Part shown: positions 1,035 through 20,518 of the stretch, one piece after another | How the letters are laid out: each line of letters starts with the position of its first letter | Position numbering within the stretch: the first letter of the stretch is position 1 | DNA from: a virus | Lineage: Duplodnaviria > Heunggongvirae > Uroviricota > Caudoviricetes | Virus record (IMG/VR): IMGVR_UViG_2740892214_000001 | Reading direction: 5' to 3' (one strand) | Length of the DNA stretch: 20,518 nt | Position numbers and translations under genes: made by a program | The notes under the pieces: model-generated | What the model was told of the DNA's origin: nothing | Database searches by the model: none | What the model saw: the letters and a program-made list of their open reading frames with translations, nothing else

Positions 1035-1094
1035 TCGTCATGCTCCATAAACGACAAAACCGCCCGGAGGCGGTTTCACATAAAACATTTTGCA

Positions 1095-2383: not shown

Positions 2384-2387
2384 GGGA

Positions 2388-3086: not shown

Positions 3087-3095
3087 CAGGGCCTC

Positions 3096-3425
3096 CTATG
3101 CCACGACCTGTTCAAAATCTGCCGTTATGGTTACCCACAGCGCCCCCACGCTTGCCGACCATTTACGACAAACCACCCTGATCGGCTTCCAGTCATAAGG
3201 TGGCGTCCACTGAAATGCGCGGACGCCACCGTGCCGTTCCAGAAAGGCTTTCAAAGATGGGTGTTCACATTTACGAACACGTATCGTCACGCTGTAAGTC
3301 GACAACTGGTTATTCAGTCCCGCCGCACGACGCTGTTCATAACCATCGCCCAGCTTCACTGTCACCACTTTCGGCTCTGATACCACATTCATATCCGGGC
3401 GCACTTTCCAGTGAAACGTCTCCAT
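3096..3425 (-). CDS. M: Minor tail protein M
   Basis: 109-aa ORF METFHWKVRPDM...GDGYEQRRAAGLN...FQWTPPYDWKPIRVVCRKWS...FEQVV, lambda gpM-like; start ATG shares one base with the H stop (TAATG). Confidence 0.9.
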   Translation of the reverse strand: METFHWKVRPDMNVVSEPKVVTVKLGDGYEQRRAAGLNNQLSTYSVTIRVRKCEHPSLKAFLERHGGVRAFQWTPPYDWKPIRVVCRKWSASVGALWVTITADFEQVVA

Positions 3426-6400: not shown

Positions 6401-6499
6401 GGCTGCACCATTCAGAAGGTTTTTGATACGGGGAATTTCATTTTTAAACTCTGCCGCATCAATCCCCAAATCAATGACCAGGTTGGCTATCTGGTCCAT
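3425..6499 (-). CDS. H: Tail length tape measure protein (about 1024 aa)
   Basis: Start trimmed to ATG 6497..6499 (MDQIANLVIDLGIDAAEF, aligns with lambda H N-terminus) with GGAGG 7 nt upstream. C-terminus NNDGTNGQIGPAALKVVYD matches the lambda gpH C-terminus; long Q/A/E/R-rich presumably helical central region. Confidence 0.9.
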   Translation of the reverse strand: MDQIANLVIDLGIDAAEFKNEIPRIKNLLNGAASDAERSSARMQRFMERQTQAARQTMQAASSAATAASVHAQTVEKSAQAHERMAREVEQTRQRMEALSQKMREEQAQAMALAEAQDKAAAAFYRQIDSVKQASAGLQELQRIQQQIRQARNSGGIGQQDYLALISEVTAKTRVLTQAEAEATRQKVAFIRQLKEQATRQNLSSSELLRARAAQLGVSSAAEVYIRKMERAGKATHSLGLKSAAARQEIGVLIGELARGNLGALRGSGITLANRAGWIDTLMSPKGMMLGGVIGGITAAVYGLGKAWYDGQKEGEEFNRQLSLTGHYAGVTAGQLWTLSRAISGNGITQHAAAGALAQVVGSGAFRGNDIGMVARAAAQMERSVGQSISDTINQFKRLKDDPVNAAKALDNELHFLTATQLEQIRVLGEQGRSSDAARIAMFALAEETGRRTADIDNNLNALGSTLQTLSDWWKQFWDAAMNIGREDSLDAQIATLQEKVSRAKRLPWTASSSQVEYDQQRLNELQEKKRQKDLQDAKEQAERNYQEQQKRRNAENAALNRMNETEAARHQREIARINAMQYADQAVRDAAIQRENERYEKALASGKKKTRETRNDEATRLLLQYSQQQAQVEGQIAAARQSAGIATDRMTEAHKQLLALQQRISDLDGKKLTADEKSVLARKDELIQALTLLDVKQQELQKQTALNDLKKKTIQLTSQLAEEERAQRQQHDLDIATVGMGDQQRQRYQVQLSLRQKYQQQLEQLRRDSEQKGTYNTDDYRKAEQALTESLNRQLNENRRYWQQLEIAQGNWKNGAMRAFQNFTADADNAAGTAEQMLTAAFNSAGNALATFCTTGKLNFKSFTASLLSDLAKIMAQMSMMQAVKGIGSAFGWGSAATASVTPNADGGVYQSADLSRYSGTVVNRPTFFAFAKGAGVMGEAGPEAILPLRRGADGKLGVVADIGGSGMAMFAPQYNIEINNDGTNGQIGPAALKVVYDLGKKAAADFMQQQARDGGRLSGAYR

Positions 6500-7195
6500 A
6501 ACGCACACCTCCGGAAATACCTTCCCCAAGATGCATCAGTTCTTCGTCCGTTCGCTCCGGTATCCCGTTCTCTTCCGGTAAAAGGCTGAAATCAGCCACC
6601 GCAGCATCACTGCTGCCGGACACCATTCTCACGATCAATGCCTTCAGCGAGGCAAACTGCGCATCCATCCACACATCACTGAAGCTCTGCATCCGGAAAT
6701 AATCGCCCCACTCACCAAGCTCAGTGGCCGACATTTCCGACAGCATCCGCCGCCAGTCTGCCCGCCGGAACTCCCGGGCAAGCCGCATGACAAACTGCAT
6801 TTCCCGCGTCAGGACTTTTCCGGCGTCAGCACCTCATGCTCCAAATCCCCGGCATTCTCAATGGCTCCCATACCGCTCAGCGACAGAACCATCTCCGCCC
6901 CCGCTCCCAGGGCATCATACGACCATGTTGTAATAACGGATGCGCAAAGCGTCTCAACATCCTGAGACTGTTCCGCATTCCACAGTGAGCGGGAAACTAG
7001 CCAGGCATTGATATCCATCCCCATCCGCAGAAAAGCAATCTGTCGTTCAGCCTCCGGCAGTTCTCCCTCTTCGGCATCAAACTTTGCCGTTCGCTGCTGA
7101 ACAAACGCCAGATATTCAATTCTCTGCAGCCCGGACAGCTCACTGAGCACCACGGACTGCTTTTCATAATTAAACGTGCCCTGTTTCAGAAACAT
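6471..7195 (-). CDS. T: Tail assembly chaperone GT fusion made by programmed -1 ribosomal frameshift near the end of G (T segment 6471..about 6818)
   Basis: ORF 6471..6800 (REFRRADWRRMLSEMSATELGEWG...GISGGVRYG) matches lambda gpT and lies in the -1 frame relative to G. The T frame is open only from 6833 downward and G stops at 6809, so the shift must occur in that interval; the only slippery candidate is GGAAAAG at 6815..6821. Confidence 0.6.
6809..7195 (-). CDS. G: Tail assembly chaperone G
   Basis: MFLKQGTFNYEKQSVVLSELSGLQRIEYLA resembles lambda gpG (MFLK...LSELSALQRIEHLA). Start at second ATG of an ATGATG pair (alternative 7198); GGTGGAG SD just upstream. Track ORF N-terminal extension overlaps the upstream hairpin and is rejected. 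Confidence 0.85.
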   Translation of the reverse strand: MFLKQGTFNYEKQSVVLSELSGLQRIEYLAFVQQRTAKFDAEEGELPEAERQIAFLRMGMDINAWLVSRSLWNAEQSQDVETLCASVITTWSYDALGAGAEMVLSLSGMGAIENAGDLEHEVLTPEKS

Positions 7196-7211
7196 CATGT
7201 TCTCCACCTGC

Positions 7212-7235
7212 AAAAAAGCCCCGGATAATCGGGGC
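7212..7235 (-). terminator. Intrinsic terminator-like hairpin between V and G (minus strand)
   Basis: Minus strand reads GCCCCG-AUUAUC-CGGGGC followed by UUUUUUG, 6-bp GC stem; lies between V stop (7256) and the G SD/ATG. Confidence 0.5.
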
Positions 7236-7255
7236 AAATGATGAGTATCGTCCTG

Positions 7256-7999
7256 TTAACCTGCGGCGCTGACGGCCACCGTAGCCACTGCCACAAAATC
7301 GCCGTCAGAAGTCATGCCCACAATGCTGACACTGCCCTGCTTCACGCCTTTCACCGTGGCCACAAGCCCGTTCAGGGTCACCGTGGCAGTCTGTGGATCT
7401 GTCGAATGCACACTGATCGCTTTGTCACTGGCTCCGTCAGGTTTTACTGTAAAGGTCAGCGTGGTGGTTGCTCCCACTTTTACACTGGCAGATGCCGGTG
7501 CCACCGTCAGCCCGGTAACGCCCACGGTTTCAGTGCCTTCTTCTGCCAGATACGGACGCCCCACACCGCTGATTTTCACTGTGCGGGTCATCACGTCTTT
7601 TGAGGCAATGGTTTTACCCAGTGAACTCAGCCAGCCACGGAAAACATCAACAGTACCGTTGGGATATTTGATACGAAACGCGCAGACTTCACCGGAGTCG
7701 AACAACTGAACCAGTTTTTTCTGCCCGCTGTCACCCGGACGCCAGGCCAGCGTCGCCGAAGTATCACCGACGGATTTCTGCCCCTGGGTTGTCGTTTTCC
7801 AGTCTGCATCTTCATCATCGAGATAAGTGTCATCTTCTGCATCAGCGGTCATTTCGCCAGGCTGCAGATCCTTCACCATCGCAAGACGCAGCCAGTCAGT
7901 GTCCGATAAAGGGTTCGCAAACGCATCGCCCTTGCCGGTGTACATCCAGAACGTCGTTCCCGCACCTTTCGTTTTTGCCAGTGGATTTGGTGTGGTCAT
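7256..7999 (-). CDS. V: Major tail (tube) protein V with C-terminal Ig-like region
   Basis: Start trimmed to ATG 7997..7999 (MTTPNPLAKTKGAGTTFW) with AAGGAGGTG SD; strong match to lambda gpV (..GDTS.TLAW.PG...NGTVDVFRGW.SS.GK..). C-terminal ~90 aa Thr/Val/Ser-rich, as in the lambda gpV Ig-like extension. Confidence 0.9.
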   Translation of the reverse strand: MTTPNPLAKTKGAGTTFWMYTGKGDAFANPLSDTDWLRLAMVKDLQPGEMTADAEDDTYLDDEDADWKTTTQGQKSVGDTSATLAWRPGDSGQKKLVQLFDSGEVCAFRIKYPNGTVDVFRGWLSSLGKTIASKDVMTRTVKISGVGRPYLAEEGTETVGVTGLTVAPASASVKVGATTTLTFTVKPDGASDKAISVHSTDPQTATVTLNGLVATVKGVKQGSVSIVGMTSDGDFVAVATVAVSAAG

Positions 8000-8009
8000 T
8001 GCCACCTCC

Positions 8010-8411
8010 TTAATTCGTGTACGTGATCTGGTACGTGATTTCCGCCATCGCCCAGGTGGCCATCTCATTATCACGTTGATAGTTAAAACCGAGTGGGATC
8101 AGGGTGTCGATGAGTCCGGAAAGTGCCGGTACATCATTCAGGGCCGGGAAAATGGTGCTCTCCATCCACATATCCAGCTCTGAATCCGGTGCCTGTGCCC
8201 GGATGAAGACGGCAATATGCAGAACAGCCTGCCAGTCATCTTCATCCGTCATTTTTCCGGTGTACTGAGCATCACTCAGCCACACCGCCACGGCAGGCAG
8301 TTCCTGCGCATCAATAAATGCCGGAAGCCCGTCAAAAAATGTGGCGCTGTCTCCACACTGTTCCCGAAGGCGTGCCAGTACGGCCTGGCGGATTTGTGTA
8401 TGTCGGTTCAT
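8010..8411 (-). CDS. U: Tail terminator protein U
   Basis: MNRHTQIRQAVLARL...ATFFDG.PA..D....PAVAV.L..A.YTG...D.D.WQA.LHI.VF..AQ.PDSELD.WMES matches lambda gpU. Start chosen at ATG 8409..8411, which overlaps the Z stop (ATGA); alternative start 8423. Confidence 0.85.
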   Translation of the reverse strand: MNRHTQIRQAVLARLREQCGDSATFFDGLPAFIDAQELPAVAVWLSDAQYTGKMTDEDDWQAVLHIAVFIRAQAPDSELDMWMESTIFPALNDVPALSGLIDTLIPLGFNYQRDNEMATWAMAEITYQITYTN

Positions 8412-8986
8412 CGGGTCAGCCATAACCTCAGTTGTTGTTTCAGTGCATACCCCAGCTGTTTCGGCATTTCCGCAGCAATGATGCGATCGCGGGCATCTTC
8501 AAATGCCTGTGTCAGCGGTCCGGACAGCGGGATTTTCACCACATCAATGGGGTAACGATTTTTGCCATCAATACGCCGCATCACATGCCAGCGACCATTC
8601 GCCAGTTGCTGAATAAACGCATCCCGGAAAAGATATTTACCCACCTTCAGCACGCTGCCACGGTACTGCAGTTTTCCACCACGCCGGGCCAGTCTGACCC
8701 GGGCTGTCCCCAGCTTAATGGCGGGCAGATTGCCCCGGTTAACGCGGATCCTGGCCGTCATTTTTCCTGACGGACTGGCTTTAAACACCCGGACACGCTG
8801 ACGTACCAGTTTCAGGGGGATCCCTTTCACCTGGTTATCTCCCGCAACGGTATTCCCGGCAACCTGCCGGGTGGCAACCGAGACCGCTTTCTGTGCCACA
8901 CGGTTTATCGCCCATGCGCTGGCCTGTGGCACCATACGGGTATCAAGGCTGTTCAGATTGCGGATGGCATTCTCAAGCCCCTTCAT
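8408..8986 (-). CDS. Z: Minor tail protein Z (tail completion)
   Basis: 192-aa ORF, same length as I recall for lambda gpZ, in the conserved position between the head-completion genes and U. The assignment rests on length and synteny; I did not align it residue by residue against lambda Z. Confidence 0.75.
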   Translation of the reverse strand: MKGLENAIRNLNSLDTRMVPQASAWAINRVAQKAVSVATRQVAGNTVAGDNQVKGIPLKLVRQRVRVFKASPSGKMTARIRVNRGNLPAIKLGTARVRLARRGGKLQYRGSVLKVGKYLFRDAFIQQLANGRWHVMRRIDGKNRYPIDVVKIPLSGPLTQAFEDARDRIIAAEMPKQLGYALKQQLRLWLTR

Positions 8987-8997
8987 CCCACACCTCT

Positions 8998-9273
8998 TTA
9001 CTCAATAAAGATCATTGGCTTACCGTTAAAGCGTTCATGCCGTGTGACCGTCCATTGTTGTCCGTCATAAACAACGCGATCCCCGCGCCGTGGGCGGTAT
9101 CCCGAAGAAAACACCACCAGAGAGACCGCAGGTCCGGACAGAGCATTCAGCTCTGCCAGTGTTTCTCCCGGGATCACGGTCATATCGACATCATTAATCG
9201 AGGCTGTCTTTCCCATCTTTCTGACCGTGATAGCATCCATACGCGCTGCCAGCCGGGAAAAGGGATCAGACAT
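8998..9273 (-). CDS. Small head-tail joining / head completion protein (gpFII-like), function inferred
   Basis: 91-aa ORF immediately upstream of Z; C-terminal RRGDRVVYDGQQWTV resembles the RRGDTLTIGEENFWV segment of lambda gpFII; position matches FII. Confidence 0.5.
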   Translation of the reverse strand: MSDPFSRLAARMDAITVRKMGKTASINDVDMTVIPGETLAELNALSGPAVSLVVFSSGYRPRRGDRVVYDGQQWTVTRHERFNGKPMIFIE

Positions 9274-9589
9274 TGAGTTTTACCGGCACTTCTTCTGCAC
9301 TGGTTCCGGCATCTGCCCAGACAACCCCGACCAGCGGATCAGAGCCGCTGTTAGTCAGCTGAACTTTTCCGGACTTCAGATAAACCTTCTTACCCGTTTT
9401 CATGTCATCCGTTTTCAGCTTAGGCAGCATAAACACACCTTCGGTCATACCGTCGCCTGTTTCACCTTGTGGAATATCGGTCAGCGCCACCGCAAAAACA
9501 TCACCCACCTGCACCAGATCTCCGCTGCTGATGGCTGCACTGGCAACAATCGCCACCGTTTTTCCTTCTTCTACAAAATTCTTTGCCAT
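9266..9589 (-). CDS. Small head-associated protein of unknown function (possible DUF2190-like head decoration/completion protein)
   Basis: Start trimmed to ATG 9587..9589 (MAKNFVEEGKT) with GGAG 6 nt upstream; 107 aa, Gly/Val-rich; lies between the major capsid gene and the FII-like gene. Family assignment is from memory and unverified. Confidence 0.45.
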   Translation of the reverse strand: MAKNFVEEGKTVAIVASAAISSGDLVQVGDVFAVALTDIPQGETGDGMTEGVFMLPKLKTDDMKTGKKVYLKSGKVQLTNSGSDPLVGVVWADAGTSAEEVPVKLNV

Positions 9590-9632
9590 AACTGTCTCCA
9601 CACAGCCCCGTTCAGGGGCTGATTTCAGGTAC

Positions 9633-9651
9633 AAAAAAAGCCCTTACGGGC
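9633..9651 (-). terminator. Intrinsic terminator immediately downstream of the major capsid gene (minus strand)
   Basis: Minus strand reads GCCC-GUAA-GGGC (GNRA tetraloop hairpin) followed by UUUUUUUGU, about 25 nt after the capsid gene stop. A second hairpin (CAGCCCC-UGAAC-GGGGCUG, 9603..9621) follows just before the next SD. Confidence 0.55.
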
Positions 9652-9675
9652 CATCAGAGTTGTTGTCTGCGATGT

Positions 9676-11634
9676 TTACGCCGTACATTTCACCAGACCG
9701 CGGTGATCAACTGGCGCGACACCGGCGTCAATACGCACTTTCGTTGTCACGCCATCCACACTGAAGCCCTCCATCTGATCAATATATGGCGTATCCACAC
9801 CGTTGAGATAAGCCACTTCAATCGTATCGGAGCCTTTTGACGCAGCCAGGTAGAAGGTGGTCTGGCTGTTATCATCAAGACGAGGCTCTGCAATAACGGT
9901 CGCAAAATCTTTCACCGGGTTAATAATACCGGCGTTAATGTCAGCCCCCTTGACACTTGAGGAGCGAATGACCTGGTTAGCAACAGACTCCATCGCCGTC
10001 GGTACCAGTACGAACGCAGGACGAATATTCAGATGACGCTCCCCCTCTTTCTGAACACGCATCAACTGGCGGGCTTTATCCAGCGATGCCACGTCCATTG
10101 CAGCGTCCTCCAGTACGTTTGCATGTTTCGCTTTATCGAACAGACTTACATTATCTGTGGAGATTTTCGGGTTAGACGTCAGAATGGCATAAACCAGATC
10201 GGCAATAGTGGATTTCGCCGCACGGCCCAGCTTCATCGGGACATCGGTCAGCATATTCAGATCATCATTGATAATGGCCTGACGGGTGATACTGAACAGC
10301 TCGCCATAGGTCGCCAGTGCAATAGTGGCCTGTTTATCTCCGGTGGTGACGTATTTATATTCCGCCCCTTCACGCACCTGACGCAGAGCACTGAAGCCCC
10401 CCATACCCACGCGATGGGCAATTTTAAAATCAGACAACTGACCTTTCCGCGTCCACTGTTCATAGGTTTCAGGGGCATCCTCCCAGCCCTGCAGAATGGC
10501 TTTGTTCGCAACATCCAGCAGAATATTACCGAAGTCAGACGTACTGTGTGTGAACGCCGCACCGACCATCTGCATCGGGTTATAACCGGAAACCCCAATA
10601 CCCCGTTCAGTCAGTGACATACGGGCATATTCACGCAGGGTCATCCCGTTGTAGACATTATCACGTTCGGTTTTTTCAAATCCGGCACGCGCCATCAGCG
10701 CCTGGCGGATCCCGTCCCCCACAAAATTACCGTTACCGGCATAAATATGAGCCGGGGTATTTTTATTGGATGGCGTGGACTCGCGCCCCATCTCGTTCAA
10801 CAGCTTTTCGCGGGCCTGCTCCAGCGAACATTCAGGATCGGCAAGACACTGAGCCTGCAGCGTCTGATAACGCCCGCCAAACATGGCAAACAGATCATTA
10901 ATACCGTTTACACGCGCTTTTTGCTCTGCCAGTACCTGCGCACGGATACTGTTTTCATCCACCACGGGTGCTGCTGCCTGCACTGGCGTCCGGGAGGCTG
11001 CAGGTTCATTATCCTGTACGCGTGGAGCACTGTTGCGTGGCGGAGTAATCATGTTTCGAATGGATTCCGGCATCTTTTTAAATTCCTCTGTACGTTTTGA
11101 CTGAATACATGCCATTGCCTTAACGGCTGGCGTCACCTGATCAGCAAATCCATGTGCCAGACATTCGGCACCGGACATCCAGGTCTCATCCGCCAGCATG
11201 GCAGCAATTTCATCGGTGGTTTTCCCGGTTTTCTGTGCATAAGCGGGTAACAGAACCGCCTCAACCTTATCGAGCAGGTCGGCATAGGTGCGCATGTCCT
11301 CCGCATCACCGCCCGTAAAGCCAAATGGTTTATGAATCATCATGAAGGTGTTTTCCGGCATAATGACCGGTTTTCCCACCATCGCAATGACCGACGCCAT
11401 TGACGCCGCCACACCGTCGACATAAACGGTAATGGACGCACCATGTGTTTTCAGCGCATTAAAAATGGCGATGCCTTCAAAGACATCGCCACCCGGTGAA
11501 TTGATATGGAGATTAATGTGGGTGATATCGCCCAGTGCATTCAGATCACTGATAAACTGCTTCGCTGTAACACCCCAGAAACCAATCTCGTCATAAATAT
11601 AAATATCCGCGTCACTCTGGTGACCAGCCTGCAT
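9676..11634 (-). CDS. Fused prohead protease (ClpP/S14-like) - linker/scaffold - HK97-fold major capsid protein (about 652 aa)
   Basis: Start trimmed to ATG 11632..11634 (MQAGHQSDADIYIYDEIGFWG), the first ATG after the portal stop. N-terminal domain has ClpP-like motifs (IYIYDEIG, INSPGGDV, MIHKP); a Pro/Ala/Gln-rich linker follows; the C-terminal ~330 aa resemble HK97-type major capsid proteins. Confidence 0.8.
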   Translation of the reverse strand: MQAGHQSDADIYIYDEIGFWGVTAKQFISDLNALGDITHINLHINSPGGDVFEGIAIFNALKTHGASITVYVDGVAASMASVIAMVGKPVIMPENTFMMIHKPFGFTGGDAEDMRTYADLLDKVEAVLLPAYAQKTGKTTDEIAAMLADETWMSGAECLAHGFADQVTPAVKAMACIQSKRTEEFKKMPESIRNMITPPRNSAPRVQDNEPAASRTPVQAAAPVVDENSIRAQVLAEQKARVNGINDLFAMFGGRYQTLQAQCLADPECSLEQAREKLLNEMGRESTPSNKNTPAHIYAGNGNFVGDGIRQALMARAGFEKTERDNVYNGMTLREYARMSLTERGIGVSGYNPMQMVGAAFTHSTSDFGNILLDVANKAILQGWEDAPETYEQWTRKGQLSDFKIAHRVGMGGFSALRQVREGAEYKYVTTGDKQATIALATYGELFSITRQAIINDDLNMLTDVPMKLGRAAKSTIADLVYAILTSNPKISTDNVSLFDKAKHANVLEDAAMDVASLDKARQLMRVQKEGERHLNIRPAFVLVPTAMESVANQVIRSSSVKGADINAGIINPVKDFATVIAEPRLDDNSQTTFYLAASKGSDTIEVAYLNGVDTPYIDQMEGFSVDGVTTKVRIDAGVAPVDHRGLVKCTA

Positions 11635-11647
11635 CCTGAACCAGGAA

Positions 11648-13156
11648 TTATTCTTCGGACTGGTCGTCGGTGTGCTGCGGCTCCTGTCGTTTCGTTGCGG
11701 CACTGCTGCCTCCTTTATCACTGGCCGGATCGGTATCAAATACCAGATCCAGCTTGCGGTTTTCATCAATTTCGGCCTTGCGCCGACGTTTGACATCATC
11801 CGGATTACGACCACCTGCACGTACCCAGTCTGATTCTGTCGCCGCTCCACCACGAATCTGGATTTTCCAGGCCTCAGCCTCCTTAACAGGGTCAATCCAC
11901 GGCATCACCGGTCCGGAATACACCGCGGTATACAGTGAAGAACGGTCAAGATCGCGGGGTAGCCTGATAACACCGGATGCCACAGCCTGTTTCAGCCAGG
12001 CACGGTACATCGGGCGGGTGACGGCACCAATAAACCAGTCCTGCAGGATCAGGTAGCCATCAGTGGATTCAACCAGCTCCTGACGCTGGGCGCTGTAAGT
12101 GCCGTTATAGTTGCGCGCTGTACTGGAAAAACTCAGACGACTGCCAGCCGCCACTGCACGCAACTGACCATTACGAAAAGTTTCAAGATTAGGATTGGGG
12201 CGATCCGACTTCACCATTCCGATTTCTTCGCCGGGTTTCAGATCGTCGTAAATAATGCCTGGCTGAATGGTAAGCTCGCGTTCCTTATCCTTGCTGCCAT
12301 TACCATCCGGTTCATAGCTCTGCCCGTCGCCTTTGCGGATGTACATCCCCAGAGCAGCGGCGATCCTTGCTGCAGTCAGCTCATAATCTTCATAATCTTT
12401 CAGGGCACTGAGGCGGATCAGCACACCGGACAACAAAGACGTCCCGCGCATCTGGTGCAGACGGCGAACAAATTTAAGATGCAGCATTCGCTCTGCATCC
12501 ACTTCTTTGGTTTCCATCTGCCGTCCGGATACGGGACGGCTTTTATACACCAGATATTTTTCGGGACGCCCCCAGTCATCAACAAACACGCCCTGATTCA
12601 GCCTGTTGCTCTCATCACTGGTCATGGGAATAAAGTCTGGCTCGAGCGCCTCCAGCCAGAAATGAACACCGGCAGAAGGCGTCAGGCTGTTTATGCGCCC
12701 GGAAACCATCTGGGCAAACACCTCACCATCGCGCAGCCAGGTACGCAGCATCAGACGTTCCAGCATCGGACGGGTAAACTGCCCGGTGACTTCCGGGCTG
12801 ACAGACCATTCACTCCATCGGGTGCGAATCTCCGCTGCCAGATCACGGGCAATGGCCCCATTGCGTAATACCGGATGTGGCTCGACAATAATCCCGTTTT
12901 TCCCCACCACCCGTTCTTCCAGCTTGTCAAATACACCAATAACCAGATCGTGGTTGTTATCAAGGTAACGGGCCTGCTCACGTAACGACACGGCCCCGTA
13001 CTGGCTTAGCTGGTCGGCAGTTCGGTTCTCCCGTCGGGCTTTGTGTGTCCGCGTCGTTTTTACGGCTTCATAAGCCTGGATCACCGCACGGGAACGCAGC
13101 CTTGCCGCTTTCCATCTAGGTGAAAAAACGCCAATCACATCATCAAGAATTGCCAT
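11648..13156 (-). CDS. Portal protein
   Basis: About 502 aa; start trimmed to ATG 13154..13156 (MAILDDVIGVF), which overlaps the upstream gene stop by one base. Sits between terminase/W and the capsid gene; acidic C-terminus. Family (lambda gpB-like) is inferred, not verified. Confidence 0.8.
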   Translation of the reverse strand: MAILDDVIGVFSPRWKAARLRSRAVIQAYEAVKTTRTHKARRENRTADQLSQYGAVSLREQARYLDNNHDLVIGVFDKLEERVVGKNGIIVEPHPVLRNGAIARDLAAEIRTRWSEWSVSPEVTGQFTRPMLERLMLRTWLRDGEVFAQMVSGRINSLTPSAGVHFWLEALEPDFIPMTSDESNRLNQGVFVDDWGRPEKYLVYKSRPVSGRQMETKEVDAERMLHLKFVRRLHQMRGTSLLSGVLIRLSALKDYEDYELTAARIAAALGMYIRKGDGQSYEPDGNGSKDKERELTIQPGIIYDDLKPGEEIGMVKSDRPNPNLETFRNGQLRAVAAGSRLSFSSTARNYNGTYSAQRQELVESTDGYLILQDWFIGAVTRPMYRAWLKQAVASGVIRLPRDLDRSSLYTAVYSGPVMPWIDPVKEAEAWKIQIRGGAATESDWVRAGGRNPDDVKRRRKAEIDENRKLDLVFDTDPASDKGGSSAATKRQEPQHTDDQSEE

Positions 13157-13368
13157 CAGAACCTCGCCAGCCGGTACCCGGGATGCCCCCGTCGTCGTGT
13201 AATCAGAGCCGCAAGGCGGCGCTCCCACTCCTGCCGTCCCTGCCGGATCTCAGATAAGTTTTCCATGGTCATCTGCTGACCATTAAAGGTGACGGATTTT
13301 CCGTCCAGCACCGCCATTTCAGCTTCCATATAACGCTGAATCATGGCTTCGATATCATTCTGGTTCAT
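13156..13368 (-). CDS. gpW-like head-tail joining / head completion protein
   Basis: 70 aa (MNQNDIEAMIQRYMEAEMAVLDGKSVTFNGQQMT...RRRGHPGY); size, position between large terminase and portal, and the C-terminal RRRG motif resemble lambda gpW. Start ATG overlaps the large terminase stop (ATGA). Confidence 0.55.
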   Translation of the reverse strand: MNQNDIEAMIQRYMEAEMAVLDGKSVTFNGQQMTMENLSEIRQGRQEWERRLAALITRRRGHPGYRLARF

Positions 13369-15467
13369 AACCATCCTCCGGAAGTCAGCCAGGGGTTAAC
13401 ATCGTCAGTTACTGTTTTCTTCCGTTTTTGTTTTTTAACAGGCGTGGATACCGGTTCCGGTGAGGATGACGGTTCGGTACTGTCCTGGACACACTCCAGC
13501 CAGGTTTCCCGGCTCGCCCACTCCGGTGCATCCGGCCAGCGGATCTTTTCGTATCCATGCAGAATGACCAGAGCCTCGGCATACACCATCAGGTCAAAAG
13601 CTTCGTTGGCACCGCGACCCGGCTTACTCCATTTCCCGTCACTGCTCCGCTCTTCATACGTCAGTTCGTCGTAAAACCAGCTCCCCAGCCAGTCAGGGAA
13701 ATGCACATAGCCGGGACCTGGCGAGTCACGCCATAACGCGTTATTCACCCGGTCTTTCAGTGCATCCGTCTGAAGAAGCCAGAGCGGCACATCACCTGCG
13801 GCCTGCGCCCGTCGGCCCGTTCGTCCGGTGTTATCAGGGAATGTACGGGTGATCAGTTTTGCGCGCCGGATGCTGTCGCCCTTAAACAGGTAAATACGTT
13901 TACCAAGGCCATCACGACGGCAACGACGCCAGAATTTATAGGCATTATCAGTGACCCCGTCTTCACCGCCGGAGTCCACCGCCATTGCCATCAGTCGCAT
14001 TTGTTGAGAAGGATCGGAGGCCAGCGGCCAGCTTTTATGAAAAACATCCGTCAGCAGGACATCCCAGTCTTCCGGATAGCTGGCCGGATCAATTCGCTGG
14101 CTCTCCCCGTCGCTGTCACCGCGCAATGACTGCGTGATGTTGTAACGATCAATAATCCAGCGTTCGCCACGGCTGCCATAGCCCGTTACCTGAACCACAA
14201 AACGGCGATGACGTCCCGCCTGCACATCCACTGTCGCCACAAGGAAATTAACGCCATCCGGCACACTGCGGGAAGGAACTGGCTCTGCCCGCTGCTCAAG
14301 CAGTTCACTTTTTCGTTGCTCCATGCTGGCGCGGGGAAGATAAGGTAATCCCCAGTCGGTATTGATAACCGTCTTGAGTGTTTCTTCACTTCCGGTTGTC
14401 TCGTATTCCTGTTCTGCAGTAAGCAGTTTGTAAACGAGTTGCGAGAGTGTCTGGTAAGCAGCTGCCGGACCCTCCATCCAGAATGACGCAATACGTGAGC
14501 GTCGGGGATCACCATAACGACTGCCATCCGCATTGATGGATTCACCATCCCGCAACCAGACCCCACGTCCGTTCAGCTCACGTTTGTGTTCAGGCATAAT
14601 CCGTCCTGAACAGGAAGGACACTGAATATAAGCCGCCTCACTTGCCAGCACGGGATCGGCAATATCACGGAAACCAGCAACCACATCGCCGCAGGGCTGA
14701 AAATACTCACCACAGTGTGGACAGGGCCAGTACCAGCGACGGCGATCACCACGGTTATAGAGCGACAGGATCCCCGTGGTTGGTGGAGCCTCATGCGGTG
14801 AAGTCCGTCGCCATTTCACATCCTTCACATCCCTGCCGGGGGAACTCTCCACCAACGTCATACCGCTGGACATAAATGTGGTGGTACGTTTTGAGGCAAG
14901 AGAGAAGGCATCCCCCTCGCCATCAATATCTTCCGGAAAACGGTCATAATCCGTCAGCGCGACGCATTTATAATCTGATGAGGACATGATATTGACTGAC
15001 GGCCAGCCGATTTTCAGGTAGTTGCCAGCAAGGAATGTTCTGTCATAAACGTTGTTGTCATTTTTGTTCGGACTCAGGCGACTGACCACTTCCGGGCTGA
15101 CGCGAAACGTTCTGGCGAGTCGTTTTTTGGAGTGTTCGCGGGCTTTTTCCTCCGTCATCTGAATGATCAGCATATCAGCAGGATCGCAAATCACGTTGTA
15201 AATCACCCAGCCGTCAATCAGGCCGATAGTCTTGCCGGTTCGTGCCGGGCCAACAAATATCACTGCGTCGTATTCACGCGAGGCCAGGCAGTTCATCGGC
15301 TCAATAACATACGGTGCCACCAGCGGATCCCACGGGACTGAGTTCCCGGCCCCCATGGGCACCCGCATATACTGAGCAACGGCATCAGCAACCCGCATTC
15401 GTCTCGGTGCGCGAAGGATATAACCTGAATCGGTTCGTGCTGCCTTTGCGGTTTCCTGATTCAGCAT
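13365..15467 (-). CDS. Terminase large subunit (GpA family)
   Basis: 700 aa; Walker A-like GPARTGKT; CPHCGEYFQP and WIIDRYNI segments resemble lambda gpA CPHCGEE and WLIDRQII; start ATG overlaps the small terminase stop (TAATG). Confidence 0.9.
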   Translation of the reverse strand: MLNQETAKAARTDSGYILRAPRRMRVADAVAQYMRVPMGAGNSVPWDPLVAPYVIEPMNCLASREYDAVIFVGPARTGKTIGLIDGWVIYNVICDPADMLIIQMTEEKAREHSKKRLARTFRVSPEVVSRLSPNKNDNNVYDRTFLAGNYLKIGWPSVNIMSSSDYKCVALTDYDRFPEDIDGEGDAFSLASKRTTTFMSSGMTLVESSPGRDVKDVKWRRTSPHEAPPTTGILSLYNRGDRRRWYWPCPHCGEYFQPCGDVVAGFRDIADPVLASEAAYIQCPSCSGRIMPEHKRELNGRGVWLRDGESINADGSRYGDPRRSRIASFWMEGPAAAYQTLSQLVYKLLTAEQEYETTGSEETLKTVINTDWGLPYLPRASMEQRKSELLEQRAEPVPSRSVPDGVNFLVATVDVQAGRHRRFVVQVTGYGSRGERWIIDRYNITQSLRGDSDGESQRIDPASYPEDWDVLLTDVFHKSWPLASDPSQQMRLMAMAVDSGGEDGVTDNAYKFWRRCRRDGLGKRIYLFKGDSIRRAKLITRTFPDNTGRTGRRAQAAGDVPLWLLQTDALKDRVNNALWRDSPGPGYVHFPDWLGSWFYDELTYEERSSDGKWSKPGRGANEAFDLMVYAEALVILHGYEKIRWPDAPEWASRETWLECVQDSTEPSSSPEPVSTPVKKQKRKKTVTDDVNPWLTSGGWL

Positions 15468-15961
15468 TACTCCTCCTGCTGTAATTCCTCCTCATCATCC
15501 GCACCTGCTTCAGTCACCCGCAGGGCTATCTGATCGCGCAGATCATCAATAATGGACTGAACACGGCTCACAGCGGCAGGCTGCAGACCGCAGTCACGTT
15601 CAAGAATATCCGGTAATGTCTCCAGCACCTGCACGACCGCTTTTGCCCAGATGGCAAACTCCCGTCTGACATCACTGGCCGGAATGAGTTGTGCCGTTTC
15701 CTGTTCGAACTTAAGACGCTCACGTTCAGACTGATACCAGGCTTTGCGCTCATGCGCGTCCATTTCGCCTTCTGCAACCGGCGGTGGTAATGCCAGAAAT
15801 GCCGACACAATATCAACCACCCGATAAAGCTTGAGGTTGCTTTCATGCCCCCCTGCAACGGGTAGATTTTGCAGCCTTGCCGCAGCAGTCTGGCGATGTA
15901 CACCTGACAGTGCCGCCAGTTGACTGATATTAAGCGTCAGATTTTTTAACTCTCGATCCAT
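15467..15961 (-). CDS. Terminase small subunit (Nu1-like, N-terminal HTH, acidic C-terminus)
   Basis: 164 aa immediately upstream of and coupled to the large terminase; N-terminal LNISQLAALSGVHRQTAAARL is HTH-like; GGAG SD 7 nt upstream; lies about 175 nt downstream of the cosN candidate. Confidence 0.7.
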   Translation of the reverse strand: MDRELKNLTLNISQLAALSGVHRQTAAARLQNLPVAGGHESNLKLYRVVDIVSAFLALPPPVAEGEMDAHERKAWYQSERERLKFEQETAQLIPASDVRREFAIWAKAVVQVLETLPDILERDCGLQPAAVSRVQSIIDDLRDQIALRVTEAGADDEEELQQEE

Positions 15962-16064
15962 ACCCGCTCCAGAATGTTTTAAACATGCATCTTGCGAACA
16001 ACTTTAGGCAAACGGTGTTAGTGATGAACAAAAAACAATCAAAATCGACACTACAAAAATAAAA

Positions 16065-16152
16065 CCACTGTAATATCAATCTATTACAGTAGTGGTGATG
16101 ACGAATGAAATTTCAAAAACTAGCCTTTTTCCGCGACGCTCCCGCCCCGTGG
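16065..16152 (-). other. Candidate cos site: cosN-like sequence (12-nt cohesive-end candidate GGGCGGGAGCGT on minus strand, plus 16136..16147) and cosB-like AT-rich region with a palindrome (16065..16095)
   Basis: Minus strand ACGGGGCGGGAGCGTCGCGG matches lambda cosN region ACGGGGCGGCGACCTCGCGG (as recalled) at 16 of 20 positions; followed by an AT-rich segment and a shared TTCGTCAT motif; distance to the terminase start is about 175 nt (lambda about 190). Confidence 0.55.
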
Positions 16153-16414
16153 CAGGCCACCCCACCGGAAGGACCCGCCAAAATGAGAGTGATTATCACC
16201 ATTGCTGATGAATAAATTGATGAAAATCATTGAAACGCCTTTCAGCAAGATAACGGCGACGGTCGTTGTTGAACTCCGTAACTCTGCTACTAAGGTTAAA
16301 AGCATGGCCATCTTTTGCCACCGGCAAATCTTCAATGGATTTCCCCTGCCGGTTTTTTATTCCTCACATTATCGCAGCCCCTCAGTGAAGGGCTGCTGTA
16401 ATGCCTGCTGTTAC

Positions 16415-16798
16415 TCAGTAACGACCGCGCCTTCCGGTAATTTCATACCGGCAAATACCGGACAGCCCGGGGATCGTTATCTGCAGCTGGTTAGCCAGGG
16501 AGTTAATCTCAGCGACCAACACTGGCTTCGTATAGCGCCATGCCGCCAGCCCTTGTCCACAGAAGCTCGCCATATCTTTTTTCTGATCAAACTCATGACA
16601 CTTCATATTGAGCTGCGCACTTAAGCTGTTGCGATGCTGAAGTTCTCCGGTGAAGTAGTCATCCAGGACTTTATAGGCTGCATATTTAAATCCGGGGTTT
16701 AGCCATGCTGCATAATCATAAGCAACAAACTTCCCGCCATATGTTCCACCGTGTACACCGCGCTCAGTAAAAACCACAGATTCGTGTTTTTTCTCCAT
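16415..16798 (-). CDS. Hypothetical protein (127 aa) between Rz and cos; possible KilA-N-like fragment
   Basis: ORF begins directly after the Rz TAG stop in the same frame, with no SD. Segment GTYGGKFVAYDYAAWLNPGF loosely resembles the conserved KilA-N motif (GTWVHP.LA..FA.WLSPEF) as recalled. Status as a functional gene is uncertain. Confidence 0.4.
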   Translation of the reverse strand: MEKKHESVVFTERGVHGGTYGGKFVAYDYAAWLNPGFKYAAYKVLDDYFTGELQHRNSLSAQLNMKCHEFDQKKDMASFCGQGLAAWRYTKPVLVAEINSLANQLQITIPGLSGICRYEITGRRGRY

Positions 16799-17266
16799 CT
16801 ACTTAATGCGCTGGGTGCGGATATATTCCTGCGCCCCTTCCAGTTGCTTCTGCATCGTCATCAACCGTTCTCTGAGGGTGAAATAATCCCGTTCAGCGGT
16901 GTCTGCCAGTCGGGGGCTGGTTGCATTATCCATGCTGGTGGGTCCGGTGGCTTCACGCACGGCTGCGGAGCAACTGGCATTGACCCGCAGGCGCTTACGA
17001 CCAGCGGCAACATCAGCGCGCAGAGTTTCATTTTCAGTTTTCGCATCGGCTAACTCCTTCGTGTATTTTGCATCGATCGCAGCAACATCACGCTGACGCT
17101 GCTGCATGTCAGCGATGGTGGCGGTCGCCTGCTTCAGCTCACTGACTTTTTTATCACGCTGTTCTTTGTAGGCGATGGCGTTATCACGGTAATGATTAAC
17201 AGCCCATGACAGGCAGGCGATGATACAAATAACCAGAGCGGAGATAATCGCGGTTACTCTGCTCAT
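16799..17266 (-). CDS. Rz: Rz i-spanin
   Basis: 155 aa; [36 protein letters not shown]...[27 protein letters not shown] matches lambda Rz; start overlaps the R stop (ATGA). Confidence 0.95.
16861..17046 (-). CDS. Rz1: Rz1 o-spanin lipoprotein, embedded in the +1 frame of Rz
   Basis: 61 aa with signal/lipobox LVVSAC and proline-rich [30 protein letters not shown], matching lambda Rz1 as recalled. Confidence 0.85.
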
Positions 17267-17739
17267 ACCTCAATCTCTCTGACCGTTCCGCCTGCTTCTT
17301 TGAATTTTGCAATCAGGCTGTCAACTTTATGCTCGAACTGACCATAACCAGCGCCCGGTAGTGAAGCCCAGATATTGCTGCAACGGTCGATAGCCTGACG
17401 AATATCACCGCGATCAATCATCGGTAAAGCGCCACGCTCTTTAATCTGCTGCAGAGCTACAGCGTCCTGGCTTTCTGGAGAAAAATCTTTCAGGCCAAGC
17501 TGTTTACGGTAAGCATCCCACCAGCGTGAAAGAAGCTGGTAACGTCCGGCGGCTGTTGATTTGAGTTTGGGGTTTAGCGTGACAAGTTTGCGAGGATGAT
17601 CGGAGTAATCCGTGAATAACTCACCACCTACAATAACGTCGTAGCCGTGATTGCGGGTTGGCTGTCGCCCGTTATCCGTTCCTTCTGACCACGCCAACAT
17701 ATCGAGGAAAGCTTTACGCTGGGAATTTAGTACCTGCAT
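17263..17739 (-). CDS. R: Endolysin R (lytic transglycosylase)
   Basis: 158 aa, near-identical to lambda R from residue 6 onward ([57 protein letters not shown]...); AAGGAG SD upstream. Confidence 0.95.
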
Positions 17740-17742
17740 AAA

Positions 17743-18078
17743 TTACTCCTTAGAGCCACCAAACTTGTTACCGATTACTCGCATTGCAGCCCCACGAATA
17801 GCATCGACACCGATCAGCCCCACGCCGCCACCAATGGCAACAGAAAGTGATTTAGGCCATCCGACATACTCAAGAGCGGATGCAAAGGTCAGCGTCAGAG
17901 CGCCACAGAGCAAAATCTCGAGCGTTTTTCGCTTCCAGCCACCACCACCGCCAAAATAGGCGATGCGCAAACCAGCCATAACGATCGACATAATCACTGC
18001 ACCCAGCGGCGTGTCTCCACGCCACCAGCTCTGAAACAACTCCAGCCAGTCCGGCCAGGTATTTGGGTTATGAGGCAT
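17743..18078 (-). CDS. Class I holin, 3 predicted TMDs (not lambda S-like in sequence)
   Basis: Start trimmed to ATG 18076..18078 (MPHNPNTW...) because the track ORF N-terminal extension contains the terminator hairpin. Three hydrophobic segments; immediately upstream of R with a 3-nt gap. Confidence 0.6.
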   Translation of the reverse strand: MPHNPNTWPDWLELFQSWWRGDTPLGAVIMSIVMAGLRIAYFGGGGGWKRKTLEILLCGALTLTFASALEYVGWPKSLSVAIGGGVGLIGVDAIRGAAMRVIGNKFGGSKE

Positions 18079-18121
18079 TTCGTCATCTCTCACCTCGCGA
18101 TATTTGCGGGTGCAGTGTTGG

Positions 18122-18147
18122 AAATAAAAAGGCCACGCAACGTGGCC
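18122..18147 (-). terminator. Intrinsic terminator between the methyltransferase and the holin (minus strand); possible tR'-like element
   Basis: Perfect 7-bp stem GGCCACG-UUG-CGUGGCC followed on the minus strand by UUUUUAUUU; begins 8 nt after the methyltransferase stop. Confidence 0.6.
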
Positions 18148-18154
18148 ACCAGAA

Positions 18155-19207
18155 TTATTTCCCCACCAGTTCACTTACCTCTTTCACCGTCTGATTAAAC
18201 CGCTCTGACTCAAGTTCAACACCTAACGCCCGACGCCCCAGCGCCATTGCTGCTTTTATTGTGGAACCGGATCCCATAAAGAAATCAGCAACCAGATCAC
18301 CAGGGCGACTACTGGCATTGATTATTTGCCGGAGCATATCCGCCGGTTTCTCGCACGGATGTTTACCCGGGTAGAACTGAACGGGTTTATGCGTCCAGAC
18401 ATCGGTATAAGGCACGGAGACTGATACGGAGAAATAGCGCCGGAGAGATTTAAACTCATCCAGCAATTCAGAATATTTGCGATTCAGTGAATCATAAGAT
18501 GCCACCAGCTGGTGGTGTGGTTGTTCCAGTTGTTGTTCCTGAAACTTCTCTGCCGCTATACGGGAAAACAGTGCCTGTAACTTCCGATAGTCAGCCTCAT
18601 TCGGCAACTGCCACTGACTGGCACCAAACCAGTGGGAAACCATATTTTTCTTACCTGTGGCTTCGGCAATTTGTTTTGCCGTTATACCCAGTTCGGCACG
18701 AGCATCCCTGAAATACGATATCAGCGGTGCCATTATGTGCTGTTTGAGTTCCCTTTCTTTTGCTGCATAGCCGTCACTTTTGCCGCGATATGGCCCCTGG
18801 TAATGTTCAGCAAACAGAACGCGCTCTGTGGCAGGAAAATATGCGCGCAGACTTTCTTTATTACACCCATTCCAACGTCCGGACGGCTTCGCCCAGATGA
18901 TATGGTTAAGCACGTTGAAACGTTCACGCATCATGATCTCAATATCAGATGCCAGGCGATGCCCACAGAACAGATAAAGGCTTCCGGCAGGTTTTAACAC
19001 CCGCCAGAACTGGGCCAGACAGTGGTCCAGCCACTTAAGGTAATCTTCGTCCCCTTTCCACTGATTGTCCCAACCGTTGGGTTTCACCTTGAAGTACGGC
19101 GGATCGGTAACAATCAGGTCAATGGAATCATCAGGCAGGGACTGAATAAAATGCAGGCAATCAGCGTTGATTAAATCAACACTGTTTATTTTTACAGTAT
19201 TTTTCAT
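18155..19207 (-). CDS. DNA amino-methyltransferase, beta-class (N6-adenine or N4-cytosine), orphan
   Basis: 350 aa; DPPY motif (IVTDPPYF) near the N-terminus and AdoMet-binding FxGxG (DFFMGSGST) near the C-terminus; no adjacent endonuclease-like ORF; weak SD. Confidence 0.85.
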   Translation of the reverse strand: MKNTVKINSVDLINADCLHFIQSLPDDSIDLIVTDPPYFKVKPNGWDNQWKGDEDYLKWLDHCLAQFWRVLKPAGSLYLFCGHRLASDIEIMMRERFNVLNHIIWAKPSGRWNGCNKESLRAYFPATERVLFAEHYQGPYRGKSDGYAAKERELKQHIMAPLISYFRDARAELGITAKQIAEATGKKNMVSHWFGASQWQLPNEADYRKLQALFSRIAAEKFQEQQLEQPHHQLVASYDSLNRKYSELLDEFKSLRRYFSVSVSVPYTDVWTHKPVQFYPGKHPCEKPADMLRQIINASSRPGDLVADFFMGSGSTIKAAMALGRRALGVELESERFNQTVKEVSELVGK

Positions 19208-19357
19208 GGATCAGTAAGCGTAACTCTGGTAGGCTCACTCTGCTTTTGCGCTAAAGCAGTGGGCCGTGGTTCGCTTGTGACCAGTAAGCATGAGCGAATG
19301 GCTGGCAGGTGCTACCAACACCCACCAGCCGCCCATTTTCACAGCAGGAAACCGCCA

Positions 19358-19585
19358 TTACTGGCAGCGTCTGAATTTATTCCCGTACCCGCCGTTATCC
19401 TTCGCCAGCCCCGCCAGAACTAACTGAGTCAGTATTAACTGGCACCGGGCTTCGCTTACTCCGGTAGTTCTCGTCATCATGCGTGGCGTTACCCACTTGT
19501 CAGCAGGTAAGAAATGAAGGACTGCGGCGGCGGTTTCTGTCATATCTTGCTGTTTTAGCATGTCTTTTTCCCTTCTGGTTAACAT
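19358..19585 (-). CDS. Small hypothetical protein (67-75 aa) with HTH-like segment; possible DNA-binding regulator
   Basis: Segment TPRMMTRTTGVSEARCQLILTQLVLAGL looks like a helix-turn-helix; start ambiguous (19585, or 19561 with AAGGGA SD); lies upstream of the methyltransferase. Confidence 0.4.
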   Translation of the reverse strand: MLTRREKDMLKQQDMTETAAAVLHFLPADKWVTPRMMTRTTGVSEARCQLILTQLVLAGLAKDNGGYGNKFRRCQ

Positions 19586-19683
19586 GACATACCAATAACT
19601 CTTGTCTAAAAAGCCAGCAAGATAAAAAGTCAGTATTCACGACCACCAGCGTGTTTACTGTACTGCACCAAGTTTACAGGTAC

Positions 19684-19705
19684 AAAAAACCCGCTCAGTG
19701 GCGGG
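19684..19705 (-). terminator. Intrinsic terminator downstream of the 207-aa cargo ORF (minus strand)
   Basis: Minus strand CCCGC-CACUGA-GCGGG followed by UUUUUUGU; about 130 nt after the ORF stop at 19838. Confidence 0.55.
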
Positions 19706-19837
19706 TTTAAGTTGTGTGGCGAAGTAACCACTCTTAACACACTAATAGCATTTTTGTTATAACACAAGTAGCTCATTCAGTATTTTTAGAATCTTGACTT
19801 TCTTAAGCACGGCGAACTCTGAATACCAAACATAAAA

Positions 19838-20461
19838 TCAATTATCTTCCAGGCCGGATGCTATCAACGAAAGCCTCTCAAAAAACGCTGTAGCAGCCTT
19901 GTCCAAAGTTGAATAAGTACTGTATTCTCCGTGTTCGGGACCAACCACTACCCATGGTCGTCTTTTTGGGATTCGGGATTTCTCAGAAATCACTGTTCCA
20001 GATATACCAATATCAATTGTTACACCTGTTATTATTTTCTCTTCATCTCTTTCCCTGAACTCAATTGCCATAAATGCCGTTTTTTTTCGTTTCCCGTTTT
20101 TAAAAAAATCAAATAAAGCAAAGCGATGCTCATTAAAATCAACACCCCATCGTCCTTCAGGATAAAGGGCATGAAAGTTGTCATTTACGCTCTGCATCGT
20201 CTCATAAGCTTTAACTTCTAAATCTCCATAGTGCATAGATACCGCGCAGGAGTTACTGGGTAACTGTATTTTCCCAAGATTGAAAACCTTTACTGCTCCA
20301 GAACTATGGCATCTTGCCCGCAACTTATCCCCATTTATACTAATCGGAGAAATATTCCTTAATGTTCCGGGCTGGCTCCCTCCTAAGTAAACGACTGTTA
20401 AAGATTGCTTATTTTCAATTGCATCAACTAATACATGCTCTACACTGAGAGATCCCCTCAT
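19838..20461 (-). CDS. Hypothetical protein (207 aa), orphan cargo ORF in a low-GC island
   Basis: Uninterrupted 207-codon ORF with GGGG SD-like element 5 nt upstream of the ATG; local G+C clearly lower than the rest of the window (about 38% in a counted 60-nt sample vs roughly 60% in the tape measure gene); no recognisable motif; own downstream terminator. Confidence 0.6.
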   Translation of the reverse strand: MRGSLSVEHVLVDAIENKQSLTVVYLGGSQPGTLRNISPISINGDKLRARCHSSGAVKVFNLGKIQLPSNSCAVSMHYGDLEVKAYETMQSVNDNFHALYPEGRWGVDFNEHRFALFDFFKNGKRKKTAFMAIEFRERDEEKIITGVTIDIGISGTVISEKSRIPKRRPWVVVGPEHGEYSTYSTLDKAATAFFERLSLIASGLEDN

Positions 20462-20518
20462 AATTTCCCCAAAACGTAACCATGTGTGAATAGATTTTGA
20501 GTAAGCAGGGTTGCAGCC

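Follow-up and report, generated by a model that had tools for sequence, protein, structure and literature searches.

WYL domains have so far been known as the half that senses the ligand in transcription factors that turn defence systems on (CapW, BrxR, DriD and PafBC), or as accessories of Cas13d and of helicases. The WYL domains of DriD and CapW bind single-stranded DNA (ssDNA) through conserved serine and arginine residues (PMC11662680, PMC12041258). We analysed a 20,518-nucleotide (nt) stretch of the Caudoviricetes virus record IMGVR_UViG_2740892214_000001 from IMG/VR, referred to here as the window, whose last 929 nt contain an open reading frame (ORF) of 207 amino acids (aa) on the minus strand (19838..20461). 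The protein has the WYL sensor in common with the winged helix-turn-helix (wHTH)-WYL-WCX regulators DriD, CapW, BrxR and PafBC, but the winged helix and the WCX domain of those regulators are both missing from it, and proteins of this type are about 200 aa long compared with about 300 aa for the regulators. Having neither a helix-turn-helix (HTH) nor a WCX domain, it cannot serve as a repressor or activator that binds DNA in the manner known for these regulators, and we therefore do not class it with them.

The copy in the window is the 3′ 97% of a prophage accessory gene fused to the inside end of the insertion sequence (IS) IS10. The native start codon, the ribosome site and the upstream region beside the antiterminator gene Q have been displaced from it. 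For the intact gene, we propose that the product has ssDNA or something similar as its ligand and takes part in conflict between phages, a role that we consider possible although still short of probable, and that we derive from the position of the gene and from the roles of WYL domains elsewhere.

Domain composition of the protein

The protein consists of an N-terminal WYL domain with a DriD-like Y-GGS-PG-R motif and a conserved C-terminal alpha/beta domain, and it contains no HTH. A preliminary description of this DNA, made from its sequence alone, had seen no recognisable motif in the protein, a statement that has to be revised for the N-terminus. The Pfam WYL model (PF13280) matches residues 10-66 with an E-value of 0.009 and 16.5 bits, below its gathering cutoff of 21.8 bits, and is matched at E ≤ 0.01 by 17 of the 52 family members (best 1.2e-5). 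PADLOC models of WYL accessory proteins match the window protein and, at up to 8.5e-7, its relatives, and RefSeq labels some copies ‘WYL domain-containing protein’. A profile of the 52 members matches the WYL domain of DriD at E 1e-3 over YxGGSxPGxxRExxP, and the modelled fold of this part is the Sm-like five-stranded beta-barrel of WYL domains. The family motif reads Y25-GGS29-PG32-R35-I-P39, R48-A49-x-C51, K58-x-F60 and K64. Residues S29, R35, R48 and K58 are conserved in 73-100% of the family and, as judged from sequence, would correspond to the ligand-binding serine and arginine residues of DriD and CapW. No HTH was found with Pfam or NCBIfam, and the WYL domain starts already near residue 7.

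The C-terminal domain is marked by the conserved residues W105, L116, F120-K-N-G123, K127, R168-P-W170, A189 and F193. A fold search with this domain retrieved no WCX domain and no informative match. Sequence searches of the PDB and NCBIfam with the protein returned no match, and in PHROGs it belongs to phrog_8498, a family of unknown function.

The IS10 junction and the state of the window copy

The region 19590-20518 has a guanine-plus-cytosine (GC) content of 0.398 versus 0.537 over positions 1-19589. The GC content falls from about 0.54 to 0.40 near 19590 and remains low through the window end, and 929-nt windows this GC-poor make up 0.36% of the total, every one of them overlapping 19590-20518. 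The ORF itself has a GC content of 0.402 and a third-position GC content (GC3) of 0.327, compared with 0.48-0.54 and 0.47-0.58, respectively, for six neighbouring genes. The preliminary description was accurate in reporting a low-GC region, the 207-aa ORF on the minus strand and an intrinsic terminator downstream of it. It erred in extending the island to position 20518 and in its choice of the ORF start, as the last 74 positions of the window are the end of IS10 (ISVsa5) and the ATG with the first 17 nt of the ORF is IS sequence.

The evidence for the insertion is direct. Positions 20445-20518 are identical at 74 of 74 positions to an annotated copy of ISVsa5, an element of the IS4 family, with the terminal inverted repeat and the transposase stop included, and they match hundreds of copies annotated as ‘IS4-like element ISVsa5’ (IS10). 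The annotated reference copy is 1329 base pairs (bp) long, has a 9-bp target duplication and ends in CTGAGAGATCCCC and CTGATGAATCCCC; we take the CTGAGAGATCCCC end to be the IS10 ‘inside’ end, the one on the 3′ side of the transposase gene. The transposase frame seen in the window ends in ...HGYVLGKL*, and the 3′ end of the gene is 13 nt from the IS tip. A three-way alignment places the junction at 20444|20445, with the intact gene of Escherichia coli 219 on the left and the ISVsa5 end on the right. All 607 nt of 19838..20444 are 100% identical to the E. coli 219 allele. The region is matched at 99.4-99.9% by 24 complete E. coli genomes, all only as far as 20444, and the EC332 genome is 89.7% identical over these positions.

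In intact relatives the gene encodes 205 aa with a different N-terminus (MDKNVEHV...; WP_000360286/WP_000360285). The native gene starts with ATGGATAAAAATGTAGAG (MDKNVE...), where the window reads ATGAGGGGATCTCTCAG|TGTAGAG (MRGSLSVE...), so that IS10 contributes codons 1 to 5 and two bases of codon 6, in frame with the rest of the gene. The chimeric ATG (20461-20459) overlaps the transposase stop as ATGA and is the first start codon after an in-frame stop located 51 codons upstream, within IS10. By supplying this ATG, IS10 gave rise to the 207-aa chimeric ORF, and the perfect identity of the remaining 607 nt to an intact allele indicates that the insertion is recent. We did not detect the IS10 junction in 5426 complete E. 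coli genomes, in 71 IMG/VR loci or in the GTDB representative genomes. The IMG/VR loci come from a profile search of viral contigs with a 6-sequence family alignment as the query, and the close copies among them all align to residues 6-207 only. The window holds one end of IS10, and the 9-bp target duplication (expected to be TGCTCTACA) falls outside it. Beyond the window end we would expect the 1329-bp IS10, then TGCTCTACA, and then TTTTTATCCAT..., with the native MDKN start, the leader hairpin described below and Q. The promoter that had been placed beyond the window end is thus replaced in this arrangement by the IS10 transposase gene.

The window copy is probably silenced transcriptionally or misregulated. 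Its expression is at best weak and would depend on read-through out of the IS10 transposase frame or on coupling to that frame; the in-frame ATG, a GGGG-rich ribosome site and the ATGA overlap leave room for such low-level expression. A further step would be to regard the window ORF as a dead remnant, in which IS10 removed promoter, leader and start and the 207-aa frame is accidental and unexpressed, and we think it somewhat probable that this is the case. The junction at 20444|20445 with the loss of the native start and leader argues for it, as do the one-in-three chance of an in-frame join, the very low expression of the IS10 transposase and the fact that no other E. coli genome or viral contig searched shares the junction. 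However, the remaining 607 nt show no decay with respect to the intact allele, and the configuration of the chimeric start might allow Q-modified or transposase read-through to yield some product. A dead remnant in the window would be a matter of this one copy and would fit with whatever function the family has. Annotation or cloning is better based on the intact allele, the window ORF being a chimera made by IS10.

Table 1. Position of the gene, its parts and its immediate neighbours in the window
Feature	Position	Strand	Remarks
75-aa ORF (67 aa in RefSeq)	19358..19585	-	phrog_331 (E 3e-26); downstream backbone gene, outside the cargo
Intrinsic terminator	19683..19708	-	Shared backbone; also in phages without the gene
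3′ untranslated region	19709..19837	-	Left mosaic boundary of the gene-specific block at ~19740-19755
Native part of the WYL-family gene	19838..20444	-	Third base of native codon 4, then codon 5 to stop; otherwise intact
C-terminal alpha/beta domain	19841..20230	-	Residues 78-207; no recognisable relative
WYL (Sm-like beta-barrel) domain	20264..20434	-	Residues 10-66
IS-derived 5′ end of the chimeric ORF	20445..20461	-	17 nt, ATGAGGGGATCTCTCAG, giving MRGSL and two bases of an S codon
IS10/ISVsa5 inside end	20445..20518		Starts CTGAGAGATCCCC; transposase gene on the minus strand, stop TGA 20460-20458

The native locus, its leader and its flanks

Read along the coding strand, the locus in E. 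coli 219, S88 and E189 comprises, in this order, a DUF968 gene, the Q antiterminator gene (123 aa), 75 nt, the 205-aa gene and the terminator. The locus continues with a small winged-helix ORF, a DNA methyltransferase, holin, lysozyme and Rz; in S88, an HTH gene and tRNAs take the place of the DNA methyltransferase. Between Q and the terminator, other phages carry genes unrelated to this one: a 138-aa gene in mEp460 (mEp460_051), a 148-aa gene on the opposite strand in PhiR40_1 and a 141-aa ORF in the Stx2k phage. The suggestion of a variable slot between Q and the lysis cassette is therefore confirmed.

The gene is rare, occurring in 52 of the 5426 complete E. coli genomes in copies that are at least 99% identical and all chromosomal. 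We found a close copy in no cultured-phage record, and the gene is absent from 42 phage records with the same flank. These 52 genomes, and no others, have the C-terminal half of Q that goes with the gene, along with its 75-nt leader. The remaining genomes share only the first ~50 codons with this Q allele (locus L001, 7332-7703). The mosaic joint with PhiR40_1 sits in the middle of Q, inside an essential regulator gene, and in E. coli 219 the low-GC block extends from the terminator region into Q and covers its C-terminal half. A variant whose protein is 72% identical (locus L068) has the same arrangement of Q, gene, terminator, wHTH gene and methylase, suggesting that the linkage to Q is old.

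The locus had been described as having the layout of a horizontally acquired moron, and this view is sustained in part. As in the HK97/HK022-type morons, which are units of promoter, gene and terminator, we find deviant GC, presence or absence among near-identical phages and a terminator downstream; the rarity of the gene, the variable slot and the distant homologs in accessory slots also agree with it. However, the gene is not independently mobile and is linked to one Q allele in 52 of 52 genomes. Furthermore, the exchanged block includes the C-terminal half of Q, no convincing promoter belonging to the gene was found, and the terminator that had been ascribed to the gene belongs to the shared backbone, as does the DNA to its left, both being present in phages that lack the gene.

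This terminator (AAACCCGC-CACUGA-GCGGGUUU-UUUG) has an 8-bp GC-rich stem, a 6-nt loop and a U6 tract, and its predicted folding energy is -13.8 kcal/mol (z -2.67). The records of phages Ayreon and SfV carry a ‘terminator’ annotation on an identical sequence. A simple terminator scanner did not report the hairpin at 19708-19683, the likely cause being that stem pairing can continue into the T-run. The DNA leftward from 19707 or from ~19740-19755 is shared at 98-99.8% with phages without the gene, and identity with mEp460 and the Stx2c phages begins at 19707. Within the 3′ untranslated region, the motif TTGTGTTATAACAAAAA is kept in the 72% variant.

The native leader can form 21 consecutive base pairs that bury the GGAGG ribosome site and the AUG. 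The hairpin (L001 7248-7305, minus strand) has a predicted energy of -26.9 kcal/mol (z -7.0), and none of 200 shuffled sequences was equally stable. In the 72% variant (L068 3935-4000) the corresponding values are -18.1 kcal/mol and z -3.9, and the two changes in the outer stem arms leave G.U pairs though the surrounding leader has diverged. We infer that the hairpin is a translational gate that keeps native expression low; it is missing from the window copy, having been removed by the IS10 insertion. A hairpin occluding the ribosome site was also considered as a general trait of the family and this was dropped, as distant homologs have no such structure and it is confined to the enterobacterial versions linked to Q.

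The 75-nt native leader contains no convincing sigma-70 promoter, the consensus scans remaining at background level. The late promoter pR′ may lie in the 75 nt between Q and the gene; the gene would then be flanked by pR′ and the terminator, and lysogens could transcribe it. A second possible site for pR′ is the conserved TGTGTTATAAC motif in the interval from the gene to the terminator, and with this placement the gene would be the last of the early-right operon.

The terminator (window 19677-19707) occurs twice in mEp460 (locus L003, 4644-4675 and 3968-3998), flanking the cargo gene, and the Stx2k phage (locus L005, 5825-5856 and 5149-5179) likewise has two copies, one on either side of a different cargo gene. 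The second copy in both phages lies between Q and the cargo, behind a good promoter (TTGCAT-17-TAAGAT) that comes just after Q. This promoter and the upstream terminator copy look like pR′-tR′, and the repeated terminator may serve as a recombination joint for the exchange of cargo. Noncoding positions 19586-19682 are near-invariant across the window, PhiR40_1, mEp460 and the diverged L068, being more conserved than the flanking coding sequence, and this segment could hold a promoter or a regulatory site. The phrog_331 ORF that follows is small and winged-helix-like, with weak MarR/TrmB matches. It is present in mEp460, the Stx2c phages and cdtI, and in many lambdoid and Stx2c phages it is a conserved gene immediately upstream of the methyltransferase.

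Farther to the left, a second dip in GC content (0.44-0.49) is seen at 15800-16800, between Rz and the small terminase gene (DUF1441). An ORF of 127 aa in this dip (16415..16798, minus strand) follows Rz directly and encodes an ORF11CD3 domain. The longest holin ORF (17743-18174, minus strand) comprises 143 aa, has a GTG start and overlaps the 3′ end of the methyltransferase gene. In the closest relative, RefSeq annotates a lambda-family holin of 111 aa, which indicates that the real holin start is probably internal.

A family in accessory slots and its possible role

Our counts of the family come from an exhaustive profile search, a word-indexed search having recovered 9 relatives only. Clustered at 50% identity, the family has 935 clusters with E ≤ 1e-3 and 190 clusters with E ≤ 1e-30. 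Its members are almost all 185-210 aa long (mostly 190-200) and match end to end. The family is a genuine, conserved two-domain protein. Homologs occur in marine and environmental bacteria and phages, including Alteromonas, Pseudoalteromonas, Leucothrix and a Dolichospermum phage. Among the few longer members (P0102, P0112, P0079, P0114, P0156, PY3_2 of locus L018, and L077-L082), P0102 has added zinc ribbons and C-terminal transmembrane helices and P0112 an added N-terminal transmembrane helix. Forms of 356-374 aa (phrog_31886, likewise a family of unknown function) share a C-terminal domain of ~170 aa; for the extra domain of these variants, no Pfam or PDB match was found.

The family is a stand-alone gene in the accessory slots of prophages and satellites. 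In a lambdoid prophage (L016/L017), Cro is on one strand, and the other strand carries CI (Peptidase_S24), the family gene, a 129-aa ORF and HicAB. The family gene begins 16 nt behind CI on the same strand in L016 and 15 nt behind a CI-type repressor in L007, and the slot directly behind CI is where lambda has rexAB. A protein of 138-152 aa precedes the family gene in L007/L008, L019 (with an extra gene in between) and L074; in L007 and L019, this protein is homologous to the S24 part of CI. The gene lies between integrase and repressor in Pseudoalteromonas phage PY3 (L018) and in L077-L082, beside the repressor in L078 and beside the integrase in L084. It is also found at the end of a satellite-like element (L009), in a packaging region directly after the terminase gene (L076), and between terminase and portal, directly after an ORF6N gene (L021). 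Other copies occupy small chromosomal islets with a ParE toxin-antitoxin pair (L010), a NERD protein (L015), a kinase/CoiA operon (L014) or a transposase (L022). A conserved partner gene was considered and dropped, as an all-against-all comparison of neighbours gave none beyond phage relatedness, and no tandem paralogs were found in L012 and L010.

We propose that the WYL domain would bind single-stranded nucleic acid, as in DriD and CapW, that ligand binding would switch the C-terminal domain, and that this domain would act on a phage or host target, so that competing phages would be excluded or aborted by the prophage. A role in defence or exclusion is plausible given the genomic positions. 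The likeness to lambda rexAB and other exclusion genes of lysogens is that distant homologs stand directly behind CI-type repressors on the same strand; however, the family is a single gene without sequence or fold similarity to RexA or RexB, and the E. coli prophage gene is behind Q and not behind cI. A more specific version, which we rate as rather unlikely, is that this HTH-less WYL protein is a new single-protein anti-phage system of prophages and satellites. Its WYL pocket would sense ssDNA of incoming or replicating phages, and a new effector fold would carry out the action, the Q-linked version being gated by the 21-bp hairpin.

Several points weigh against a role in phage conflict. The position of the gene is circumstantial evidence, and we found no paper or experiment on the family, including in searches by protein accession and PHROG id; a Gifsy-1 paper and a P2/P4 hotspot paper mention WYL in their reference lists only. 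The window protein scores under the Pfam WYL cutoff (16.5 versus 21.8 bits), and both structure models are of only moderate confidence (predicted local distance difference test values of 74-76). The C-terminal domain has neither a conserved acidic or histidine catalytic set nor an informative fold match, and we therefore cannot name an effector activity. In PADLOC-DB v2.0.0, there is no match to a known defence model beyond the WYL domain; the only models matched are generic ones for CRISPR-associated WYL accessory proteins (E 1e-3 to 1e-7), and they align to the WYL region alone. Finally, the late promoter was not located by the consensus scans, so that expression in lysogens is only a possibility.

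Other functions could be served by the same domains. The protein might sense DNA damage or replication stress for the prophage's own cycle, the WYL domain binding ssDNA and the C-terminal domain modulating RecA and the SOS response, induction or late development, with no action on other phages. The WYL regulators DriD, PafBC and CapW sense ssDNA arising from DNA damage, the gene adjoins both places at which temperate phages chiefly take their decisions, namely the CI repressor and Q, and it is strictly linked to one Q allele. We nevertheless consider this unlikely, as most close relative phages function without the gene, which is also present in satellites, packaging modules and chromosomal islets, and the similarity to PsiB is at noise level, with Frataxin and Mediator subunits scoring higher. 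It is less likely still that the protein is an anti-defence decoy, in which an HTH-less WYL domain would soak up the ssDNA or oligonucleotide signal of host CapW, BrxR or other sensors and so protect the phage during induction or infection. The ligand-binding fold and motif of CapW, BrxR and DriD without their DNA-binding and WCX domains would suit a decoy, and a place after Q would give expression in lytic growth. However, a place right behind CI implies that lysogens express the gene, as is usual for exclusion genes and not for anti-defence genes, and the conserved 130-aa C-terminal domain and the membrane-anchored variants exceed the needs of a sponge; the AcrIIA11 score is at noise level. 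The preliminary description had also allowed for a virulence factor. The Q-lysis slot carries stx in Stx phages, and a toxin delivered to a eukaryotic host from the equivalent position would fit that precedent, but we regard this as very improbable. The sequences contain no signal peptide, transmembrane segment or match to a toxin family, the fold is that of a cytoplasmic nucleic-acid-binding domain, and homologs are widespread in marine and environmental bacteria and their phages.

In this family, a WYL sensor is joined to an undescribed domain and a DNA-binding module is lacking; the gene travels by itself, in slots that temperate phages use for exclusion genes. If a role in defence or counter-defence is true, the protein would be an ssDNA-sensing module wired directly to an effector, and a small and tractable new system. 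Overall, though the window copy is damaged, the family is a reasonable candidate for a new phage-versus-phage gene.

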